A stretch of 64,000 nt of DNA from Escherichia coli (GTDB lineage Bacteria; Pseudomonadota; Gammaproteobacteria; Enterobacterales; Enterobacteriaceae), in the NCBI RefSeq assembly GCF_041248615.1, contig NZ_CP158426.1; one strand, 5' to 3'. The position numbers were made by a program. Shown here piece by piece: positions 13,254 to 16,200 of this stretch. How positions within the stretch are numbered: the first letter of the stretch is position 1; the number at the start of each line of letters is the position of its first letter.

Positions 13254-16200
13254 GTAAGCGTCGTATCTGGCGCTAGTACCCGATCACAACTCGATTTCAA
13301 TATCGCCTTTTGCCCGGCAACAACAGGGCAAAATTTCCCCCGGCTGAATAAAGGCTAACGGTTCGGCAATCCAGTCCACCTGGCCTGCAACAAGGCGCGT
13401 GCGACAGGAACCGCAGTAACCTTCGCGGCACTGGTACTCAACCGCCACATTGTGGGATTCCAGCGCCGCCAGAAGGGAAGGGTGTTCATCCTGGCACAGC
13501 AGTTGTGTGCCAGTGATGCGCAGGGTAACGCGAGCCATCAGAGCTGGAAGTTACTCAAATCGTCGGTGTCCACTTCCGAGTCAATCTGCCCGACCAGATA
13601 AGAACTGACTTCCACTTCCTGCGGAGCAACCTGCACGTTATCAGACACCAGCCAGGTATTGATCCACGGGATCGGGTTGGAGCGAGTCTGGAACGGCAGA
13701 TCCAAACCGACTGCCTGCATGCGGATATTGGTGATGTATTCAACGTACTGGCAGAGAATGTCTTTATTCAGACCAATCATCGAACCGTCACGGAACAGAT
13801 AATCCGCCCAGTCTTTCTCTTGCTGTGCCGCCTGGACAAACAGGTCATAGCATTCCTGCTTACATTCTTCGGCAATTTCCGCCATCTCCGGATCATCCGC
13901 GCCGCTGCGCAGCAGATTCAGCATATGCTGAGTACCGGTCAGGTGCAGGGCTTCGTCGCGGGCAATCAGGCGAATAATTTTGGCGTTACCTTCCATCAGC
14001 TCACGTTCTGCAAAGGCAAAGGAACAAGCAAAGCTGACGTAGAAGCGGATCGCTTCCAGCGCGTTAACGCTCATCAGGCAGAGATACAGTTTTTTCTTCA
14101 GCTCGCGCAGGCTAACGGTTACGGTTTTACCGTTAACGGTGTGGGTACCTTCGCCCAGCAGATGCCAGTAGCTGGTCATTTCGATCAGCTCATCGTAATA
14201 GCTGGAGATCCCTTCCGCACGTTTCTGGATCTGCTCGTTGGTGACGATATCATCAAACACAACGGACGGATCGTTAACGATATTACGAATGATATGGGTA
14301 TAAGAACGAGAGTGAATGGTTTCTGAGAACGCCCAGGTTTCGACCCAGGTTTCCAGTTCAGGGATCGAGATCAGCGGCAGCAGTGCCACGTTCGGGCTGC
14401 GACCCTGAATGGAGTCCAGCAACGTCTGATATTTCAGGTTGCTGATAAAGATGTGTTTTTCGTGTTCAGGCAGTGCCTGGTAATCGATACGGTCACGAGA
14501 AACGTCAACTTCTTCCGGACGCCAGAAGAAAGAGAGCTGCTTTTCGATCAGCTTTTCGAAGATGTCATATTTTTGCTGATCGTAGCGAGCCACGTTGACC
14601 GGCTGACCAAAGAACATCGGTTCTTTGAGCTGATCATTTTTCGTCTGTGAAAAGGTGGTATATGCCATGAATGTGTCCTGTTGGGAGTTTAATGCCGGAT
14701 AAGGCATTTTACGCCGCATCCTGTGCCTGATGCGACGCTGGCGCGTCTTATCAGGCCTACAAACCGAGCCGTATGCCGGATAAGGCGTTCACGCCGCATC
14801 CGGCATCTCAATATCAGATCTTACATGCGCCGCTTTCGCAGCCATCGTCCTGGATTGACGGTACCAGATCGTCCTGCGCGTCTTCAGCGCCGTCACGGGT
14901 GTTCTGATAATACAGCGTTTTGACCCCGAATTTGTAGGCGGTGAGCAGGTCTTTCAGCAGTTGCTGCATCGGCACTTTTCCTGACGGGAAGCGTGACGGA
15001 TCGTAGTTGGTGTTAGCAGAGATCGACTGATCGATAAATTTCTGCATGATACCCACCAGTTGCAGGTAGCCATCGTTACCCGGCATTTCCCACAGCAGCT
15101 CATAGGCGTCGTGCAGATGCTCGTAGTCCGGCACCACCTGGCGCAGAATACCGTCTTTCGACGCTTTGATGCTGACGTAACCACGCGGCGGTTCAATACC
15201 GTTAGTGGCGTTAGAGATCTGCGAAGAGGTCTCGGACGGCATCAGAGCAGAAAGCGTGGAGTTACGCAGGCCGTGCGTTTTGATTGACTCACGCAGTGCT
15301 TCCCAGTCGTAATGCAGCGGCTCATTAGCGATGGCATCCAGATCTTTCTTATAGGTATCGATCGGCAGGATCCCTTTCGCGTAAGTGGTTTCGTTAAACC
15401 ACGGGCACGCGCCTTGCTCTTTCGCCAGCTCATTAGAGGCTTTCAGCAGGTAATACTGAATAGCTTCGAAGGTTTTATGCGTCAGGTTGTTGGCGCTGCC
15501 GTCGGAGTAGCGTTTACCGTGCTTCGCCAGGTAGTAAGCGAAGTTGATCACACCAATACCCAGCGTACGACGACCCATCGCTCCACGTTTGGCGGCCGGG
15601 ATCGGGTAATCCTGATAGTCCAGCAGCGCGTCGAGTGCGCGTACCGCCAGAATCGCCAGCTCTTCCAGTTCATCCAGGCTATTAATTGCGCCCAGGTTGA
15701 AAGCAGACAGCGTACACAGCGCGATTTCACCGTTCTCGTCGTTGACATCATTCAGCGGTTTGGTCGGCAGGGCGATTTCCAGGCACAGGTTAGACTGGCG
15801 CACTGGCGCGATGGCCGGATCAAACGGGCTATGGGTATTGCAGTGGTCAACGTTCTGAATATAGATACGACCGGTAGACGCACGTTCCTGCATCATCAGC
15901 GAGAACAGCTCAACGGCTTTCACACGCTGCTTGCGGATGCTGTCGTCTTTCTCATATTTGGTGTACAGGCGTTCAAACTCTTCCTGATCGGCGAAGAACG
16001 CGTCGTACAGCCCCGGCACGTCGGACGGGCTGAACAGAGTGATATCTTCACCTTTCAGCAGACGGGTATACATCAGTTTGTTGATTTGTACCCCGTAGTC
16101 CATATGACGCACGCGGTTGCCTTCAACCCCACGGTTGTTTTTCAACACCAGCAGGCTTTCCACTTCCAGATGCCACATCGGGTAGAACAGCGTAGCCGCA

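Follow-up and report, generated by a model that had tools for sequence, protein, structure and literature searches.

A BIME-2 array within the nrdAB-yfaE operon and an IS1397 copy in a solitary palindromic unit of an Escherichia coli chromosome

The hairpins formed by REP sequences are classical barriers against 3'-5' exonucleases. A role in translation is described in those passages of PMC12306157 that summarise Liang 2015, according to which REPs situated up to 15 nt from a stop codon cause ribosomes to stall, the nrdAB transcript being a reported case. At the DNA level, BIME-2 arrays are bound and cleaved by DNA gyrase and bound by Pol I (PMC1525189, PMC12306157), and the RAYT protein TnpA-REP binds, cleaves and recombines BIMEs in vitro (PMC3333891). 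BIME stands for bacterial interspersed mosaic element, in the Gilson/Bachellier/Hofnung nomenclature. The BIME-2 class is defined as y plus z2 units in variable tandem number (PMC3333891).

The palindromic units (PUs) of BIMEs are, in turn, the targets of dedicated IS elements. IS1397 (Bachellier 1997, Clément 1999) is stated, in the relevant passages of PMC1525189 (Tobes and Pareja 2006) and PMC3184786 (Delihas 2011), to insert specifically in these units, with Clément 1999 and Wilde 2001 and 2003 as the primary sources, and the same passages hold that its transposase determines the PU specificity. Its Klebsiella pneumoniae relative ISKpn1, likewise a PU-targeting member of the IS3 family whose transposase decides the PU type (PMC1525189), is specific for Klebsiella-type PUs, whereas the element described below is the E. 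coli one.

The DNA analysed here, a window of 64 kb from an E. coli chromosome that runs from yfaU to ccmA, is colinear base for base with positions 1583017-1647016 of NZ_OW967178.1 (isolate 362), from which it is only 7 SNPs apart. Hence, RefSeq gene names transfer directly, and those used in an earlier note on this DNA proved to be correct. The order begins with yfaU, rpnE, glpCBA, glpTQ, a LysR/MFS pair, inaA, an IS element and yfaE, continues with nrdB, nrdA, ypaB, yfaL, ubiG, gyrA and onward, and ends with rcsC, rcsB, rcsD, ompC, mqo, eco, nap and ccmA. The overall reading presented below, namely that a BIME-2 cluster lies in the nrdAB-yfaE operon and that IS1397 occupies one solitary PU, is one that we hold with high confidence.

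The earlier note had placed PU clusters at nrdB-nrdA, yfaL-ubiG, rcsC-rcsB, mqo-eco and inaA-yfaE, and this list turned out to be complete, with PUs present at 5/5 sites. An ungapped Hamming comparison to the Y, Z1 and Z2 consensus sequences, with a threshold of at least 72% identity, recovered 7 units of 75-100% identity in the window; at the same threshold, 20 first-order Markov shuffles of its sequence yielded none. The more sensitive gapped scan with blastn-short added half-units and one gapped unit, and across the whole window it returned no PU with E<0.1 outside the five gaps. All the PUs are extragenic, lying in these five gaps between genes as annotated by RefSeq. When nine PU sequences were folded, five of them, one being the reconstructed empty site at inaA/yfaE, gave a hairpin that has an internal mismatch and a loop of 4 nt, at z-scores of -3 to -4.7. 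The rest, comprising the nrdB-proximal unit at nrdA-nrdB, the unit nearest rcsC and the two mqo/eco units, gave z-scores of -0.5 to -1.9, no clear excess over shuffles; these units are degenerate and may not fold. The REP/PU family consists of imperfect palindromes of 30-40 nt, typically found at the 3' ends of genes or between cistrons and numbering in the hundreds per genome; the nrdA-nrdB cluster belongs to it and displays all the features that define it at the sequence level. For a 5-kb query containing these PUs, the median number of matched places in a genome was 20, and 351 records had at least 40, which is in keeping with a dispersed repeat, although the figures are not a count of PU copies.

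The most elaborate of the five sites is the 145-bp gap between nrdA (14814-17099, minus strand) and nrdB (13538-14668, minus strand), where a cluster of three PUs (14691-14810) occupies the intercistronic region:

14694-14721, minus strand: PU-a, degenerate Y-type unit nearest nrdB, 89% identity over 28 nt with one indel (blastn-short)
14725-14760, plus strand: PU-b, central Z2-type unit, 36/36 to the Z2 consensus
14771-14804, minus strand: PU-c, Y-type unit nearest nrdA, 33/34 to the Y consensus

The orientation of the units thus alternates as Y(-), Z2(+), Y(-). PU-b and PU-c fold into hairpins of -11.6 kcal/mol (z -4.34) and -13.2 kcal/mol (z -3.91), respectively, while PU-a is devoid of the outer GGC arm and folds no better than its shuffles (z -0.54). 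The RNA of the entire gap, taken from the transcribed minus strand, folds at -66.5 kcal/mol (z -4.44). On this transcript, 7-9 nt separate the nrdA UGA codon (14814-14816) from the base of the PU-c hairpin downstream of it; at the other end, the distance from PU-a, which is conserved in K-12, to the nrdB AUG downstream is about 25 nt, and that from the end of the array to the nrdB Shine-Dalgarno sequence about 12 nt. The corresponding gap of K-12 measures 233 bp and holds five units (degenerate Y, Z2, Y, Z2, Y), whereas the window and ETEC1738 each have three, i.e., one Z2-Y pair fewer.

The nrdA-nrdB cluster is of the BIME-2 type: it has in common with that class the alternation of Y and Z2, the short linkers, the extragenic location and a unit number that varies between strains (3 vs 5), and no essential difference was found; the nrdB-proximal unit is degenerate. 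The polymorphism in tandem number is in itself known BIME-2 behaviour.

With regard to function, the units of the nrdA-nrdB gap would form stable hairpins on the minus-strand mRNA. The first of these, 7-9 nt past the nrdA stop and hence inside the 15-nt range, would be expected to make the terminating ribosome stall, with less of the upstream protein produced as a result. Protection of the upstream RNA from 3'-5' exonucleases may be a further effect of the hairpins; both effects are suggested by position and by published work on K-12. The window shares with the described case of REP-mediated translational down-regulation (Liang, Rudd and Deutscher 2015) the nrdAB transcript and a REP hairpin at most 15 nt away from the stop codon of nrdA, and departs from it in an array one Z2-Y pair shorter. 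At the DNA level, arrays of this Y/Z2 type are known substrates of gyrase and of the RAYT TnpA-REP, and their length grows and shrinks from strain to strain. As a side observation, K-12, whose array is the longer one, is also the source of the published work on RNA roles.

A different view of the same palindromes would take them as mainly selfish, REPIN-like DNA kept and multiplied by the RAYT TnpA-REP, with no regulatory effect on nrdAB or on other genes. The difference in unit number at nrdA-nrdB, the decay of several units and the action of TnpA-REP on BIMEs in vitro (PMC3333891) are all in keeping with it. However, an effect of the nrdAB REP on translation is reported in the part of PMC12306157 concerned with it, and the near-perfect state of the better units (33/34 and 36/36), along with the retention of PU-a in K-12, suggests maintenance. 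We regard this view as possible but somewhat unlikely; it is, in any case, compatible with the identification of the units as REP/BIME-2 elements.

Three of the remaining sites lie between convergent genes:

21546-21579, plus strand: solitary Y-type PU in the yfaL/ubiG gap, 27/34 to the Y consensus, with its stem changes compensated
44843-44925, no strand assigned: two-PU BIME in the rcsC/rcsB gap, made of a Y and a Z2-like unit
44843-44876, minus strand: its Y unit, 31/34 identity
44890-44925, plus strand: its Z2-like unit, 31/36 identity
56682-56801, no strand assigned: BIME in the mqo/eco gap, with two PUs and a short extra palindrome
56682-56712: the short extra palindrome, built of PU arms
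56712-56747, minus strand: its Z2 unit, 28/36 identity
56768-56801, plus strand: its Y unit, 32/34 identity

The yfaL/ubiG unit folds into a hairpin of -12.2 kcal/mol (z -4.66). In all three cases the gap is shorter in the window than in K-12, with 60 vs 127 bp for ubiG/yfaL, 85 vs 199 bp for rcsB/rcsC and 149 vs 714 bp for eco/mqo. At the rcsC end, the TAG stop codon of the gene (44844-44846) falls within the GTAG tail of the Y PU.

The location of these GC-rich hairpins at the 3' ends of genes might prompt their interpretation as intrinsic (Rho-independent) terminators of convergent genes, but this is very improbable: the nrdA-nrdB cluster sits inside an operon whose downstream gene needs to be transcribed, no T-run follows a REP in 11600-14900, and a terminator scan found none at the REPs. 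A role as intrinsic terminators was accordingly rejected on account of the T-runs missing from the REPs of 11600-14900.

The fifth site, between inaA (ending at 11794) and yfaE (minus strand, ending at 13284, with its stop codon at 13284-13286), holds the IS element. Its features, and those of the palindrome that it splits, are as follows:

11822-13253, plus strand: IS1397, 1432 bp, between inaA and yfaE
11822-11846 (IRL) and 13229-13253 (IRR): terminal inverted repeats of 25 bp, imperfect, 21/25 matching
11873-12394, plus strand: orfA, with the Pfam domains HTH_28 (9e-18) and HTH_Tnp_1
up to 13221, plus strand, -1 frame: orfB, with the Pfam domains rve (1.7e-21), rve_2, rve_3 and HTH_21, of the DDE type
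12346-12352, plus strand: slippery A AAA AAG, as read in the sequence
11800-11821, minus strand: left half of the inaA-yfaE PU (tail GTAGG, 3' arm and loop), from alignment with empty sites and blastn-short
13254-13276, minus strand: right half of the inaA-yfaE PU, from alignment with empty sites

The element is IS1397, a name which rests on the RefSeq annotation of 11873-13221 as 'IS3-like element IS1397 family transposase, programmed frameshift'; the earlier note had left it unnamed. Its length of 1432 bp agrees with that reported for the ISfinder entry of IS1397. The termini read TGAACTGCACCCCAAATGTTGGACA and the complement of TGAACTGAACCCCAAAACCTGGACA, following the pattern TGAACTG...CAGTTCA, and the element displays the characters of the IS3 family, i.e., orfA and orfB in frames 0 and -1, a slippery A-run, imperfect inverted repeats of the TG...CA form and a 4-bp direct repeat. 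With IS1397 as described it shares the name, the IS3 layout, the -1 frameshift, the duplication of 3-4 bp, the insertion at the PU centre and the restriction to chromosomes, and no difference was found in the element itself.

In ETEC1738 and K-12 the site is empty and the target is the uninterrupted GTAGGCCAGATAATACGC-GTAA-GCGTCGTATCTGGC; alignment with these two identifies the GTAA present on both sides of IS1397 as the target duplication. The left half-PU matches Z2 positions 19-37 (blastn-short) and ends in the GTAA copy at 11818-11821, while the right half, some 10 nt away from the stop codon of yfaE, begins with the copy at 13254-13257. On folding, the reconstructed PU forms a hairpin with precisely GTAA as its 4-nt loop. 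The proposal that the inaA-yfaE unit is the one carrying the IS is therefore borne out by empty sites and folding alike: the element occupies the loop of a solitary Z2-like PU. IS1397 transposase integrates into the central loop of a PU and duplicates its 3-4 loop bases.

To test PU specificity, IS1397 copies were collected from several sources: an exact-protein look-up with OrfA gave ten places, complete genomes sampled down a similarity ranking gave fifteen, a variant OrfA gave two new sites, and both genomes with the insertion of the window gave one further copy each. After deduplication of loci, and with the window counted, this yielded 23 distinct, fully resolved sites from about 20 genomes, together with three half-sites (loci L007 and L033, and a right-end relic of 65 bp). 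The sites include ygcP/ygcQ, panM/livJ, cysE/trmL, tldD/yhdP, ugpB/livF, mgtA/ridA, loiP/speB and ruvB/znuB, as well as zinT/msrQ, two positions downstream of rrf, hybG/yghU, pfkA/sbp, ypfH/ypfN and yphB/yphA.

As judged from the reconstructed empty sites, IS1397 lies in a PU loop at 23/23 distinct sites and 3/3 half-sites. The insertion point falls within 1-2 nt of the PU dyad centre across the surveyed sites, and the target duplication, of 2-4 bp, corresponds to the central PU loop in every case. The targets comprise 13 Y and 10 Z2-like units, with no Z1-type unit among the 23 (0/23), and both orientations of the element relative to the PU tail occur, in a ratio of 15:8. A scan of genome contigs with the 22-nt left end picked up, for the most part, IS3-family elements other than IS1397 that have the terminal repeat in common with it; the genuine IS1397 junctions numbered just two, both in PUs. 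In NZ_OW967178.1, the genome resembling the host, two of the 7 IS1397 places were inspected and both lie in PUs, while the livJ/panM and livF/ugpB sites of this genome are empty of IS1397. NZ_LT599825.1, the second genome of this kind, has 12 places, of which two were likewise inspected.

The earlier note had suggested PU-specific targeting and had set in advance the case that would speak against it, namely copies lying outside PUs; no such copy was found in the survey, and the suggestion is well supported by the 23 sites and three half-sites, all of them in PU loops. The 1997 description by Bachellier reportedly found 14/14 natural IS1397 sites in BIMEs, than which the present survey, at 23/23, is larger. 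The PU specificity of IS1397 is, at the same time, already known from work published between 1997 and 2003, with which the survey agrees.

These sites also bear on the supposition that chance put the IS into the inaA-yfaE gap, as one of the intergenic insertions that survive selection, with the PU being incidental. The site does lie between convergent genes, where an insertion is harmless, and a single case could not have separated this supposition from PU targeting. Yet the location of all 23 sites and three half-sites within 1-2 nt of a PU dyad centre, when PU loops make up a tiny fraction of intergenic DNA, leaves chance with a negligible probability, and the transposition assays mentioned in the pertinent part of PMC1525189 show the same PU specificity. 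Chance intergenic insertion is hence refuted by the survey, and PU targeting by IS1397 is the reading retained.

An equally slender prospect is that the element is some other REP-targeting IS with a different mechanism, such as IS621 of the IS110 family, which likewise goes into E. coli REPs (PMC1525189, PMC3184786) and whose family has genes adjoining or interrupting IS1397 copies in other genomes: IS621 has a DEDD transposase, an unrelated chemistry and no terminal inverted repeats, and it inserts 3' of the palindrome, beside it and outside the inverted repeat (PMC3184786), whereas the element of the window has terminal inverted repeats, a 4-bp target duplication, an HTH OrfA and an rve (DDE) OrfB joined by a -1 frameshift, and a position in the loop. 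The domain content, from which DEDD_Tnp_IS110 is absent (Pfam), rules out an IS110/IS621 identity.

A near-full-length IS1397 is present in 1707 of 5426 complete E. coli genomes, in which the places matched, short relics counted too, are 7612 on chromosomes vs 7 on plasmids. Among 72,556 PLSDB records, no full copy was found on a true plasmid: the three records with a full copy measure 0.73-4.9 Mb and are taken as chromosomal on size alone, and the real plasmids carry an IS1397 fragment of 194 bp at most. This is as expected of a REP-dependent element, because REPs are chromosomal.

The inaA/yfaE insertion itself is rare for IS1397, being found in only 2 of the 5426 complete genomes. Both of these have a second, 100% identical copy at yphB/yphA. 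A 100% identical copy occurs in five complete genomes altogether; the three others include KE55, whose copy is at panM/livJ. Further, the frameshifted transposase gene of the window copy is intact. The rarity of the site, the identical copies and the intact gene together point to a recent insertion and to a lineage of the element that is probably still active.

Regarding how IS1397 finds its target, we know of no structural resolution of its recognition of PUs. The precision with which it hits the dyad centre, the occurrence of both orientations, the use of Y and Z2-like units that differ in loop sequence and the absence of Z1 targets would be consistent with recognition of an extruded hairpin or cruciform, or of the geometry of the inner GC stem, rather than of linear sequence, by a DDE transposase; this is a speculation that we think unlikely to hold. 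As a weaker reading of its consequences, the insertion might alter mRNA stability in this lineage through the loss of the 3' hairpin shared by inaA and nrdAB-yfaE.

Beyond annotation, the significance of these observations is small. The array-bearing stretch, IS1397 and its targeting of PUs are all already known, and the nrdAB REP is, in the account that PMC12306157 gives of Liang 2015, a published model of REP-mediated translational down-regulation; what can be said is that both the REP/BIME repeats and the PU-targeted IS were recognised correctly from raw sequence. For the biology of the organism, an essential operon, nrdAB, bears a strain-variable REP array at a place where REPs reportedly tune translation, and the inaA/yfaE insertion, along with its identical sister copy at yphB/yphA, marks a recent and probably active lineage of IS1397.

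In about half of the complete Escherichia coli genomes, including K-12 derivatives, the sole match to IS1397 is a relic of 65 bp from its right end, corresponding to IS positions 1368-1432 at 97%. The single example inspected, in the K-12-lineage strain PG20180061, adjoins yhhI, an ISEc1/H-repeat gene at the end of RhsB. Directly after the relic comes the right half of a REP palindromic unit (PU) of Y type, TAAACGCCTTATCCGGCCTA; the ancestral IS1397 insertion was therefore in a PU as well. The coordinates of the relic and of two copies of an element inserted into IS1397, which are taken up below, are as follows, each in the numbering of its own locus.

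L030, 2501-2565: IS1397 right-end relic between yhhI and yhhJ, strain PG20180061
L006, 3562-4935: IS110-family insert in IS1397, assembly LT903847.1
L033, 12260-13633: IS110-family insert in IS1397, E. coli SCPM-O-B-8794

One IS1397 copy is rearranged. At ygcP/ygcQ of GCA_000692635.1 (L005, 2450-4240), positions 1-699 of the element come first, positions 1-305 then occur a second time, and 766-1432 complete it. The surrounding PU and the TTGA duplication are both intact.

In the window, the rcsC stop codon TAG is part of the conserved GTAG tail of the adjoining Y-type PU (44843-44846), and the repeat therefore provides the terminator codon of this gene. Further, the degenerate Y-type unit in the nrdA-nrdB gap (14694-14721, minus strand) contains the final codons and the stop of an ORF of 11 codons (14667-14702, plus strand), which is antisense to the start of nrdB. 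This ORF corresponds in position to K-12 yoaM (b4779), differs from the K-12 DNA by one base across its length, and is left unannotated by RefSeq in this strain. Separately, comparison of the window with the near-identical record of isolate 362 (NZ_OW967178.1) revealed differences at 22700 and 22711, in codons 83 and 87 of the gyrA QRDR. The window encodes S83L and D87H, with S83 and D87 present in both isolate 362 and K-12; S83L/D87H is a fluoroquinolone-resistance-type genotype, and the window thus derives from a close relative of isolate 362, not from the sequence of that record itself.

A scan of genome contigs with the 22 nt that begin the left end of IS1397 (loci L031-L046) showed that this exact sequence is also carried by other IS3-family elements, namely those of Yersinia (aldovae, similis, pestis and massiliensis), Serratia nevei and several MAGs. 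The motif AGGGCGC is common to the left flanks of all three readable copies in Serratia nevei (the contig of the fourth stops at the IS), which hints that the Serratia relative may likewise target a repeat. At L031 and L040 only a few bases separate the two inverted-repeat ends, with no transposase gene between them. The 415-bp contig of Microbacterium sp. 18062 (L039) joins the E. coli ruvB/znuB PU to the IS1397 left end, a junction identical in sequence to that of L022, and is almost certainly E. coli contamination of that assembly. In PLSDB, full IS1397 occurs in only three "plasmids", NZ_CP141089.1 and NZ_CP134663.1 (4.9 Mb each) and CP088669.1 (0.73 Mb), which on size alone look like chromosomes or chromosome fragments.

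IS1397 is itself a site of insertion: two unrelated assemblies (L006 and L033) carry an IS110-family insert (about 1374 bp, encoding a DEDD transposase of 358 aa) between IS positions 1115 and 1116, and the IS1397 half-site L007 displays a more complex nested arrangement. Additionally, at L025 and L026 a transposase gene of the IS110 family (2843-3808; about 322 codons, frameshifted) lies about 210 bp from an IS1397 copy inserted in a PU 3' of an rrf gene. This gene may belong to IS621 or a relative, in which case one BIME would be common to two unrelated families of REP-targeting IS.
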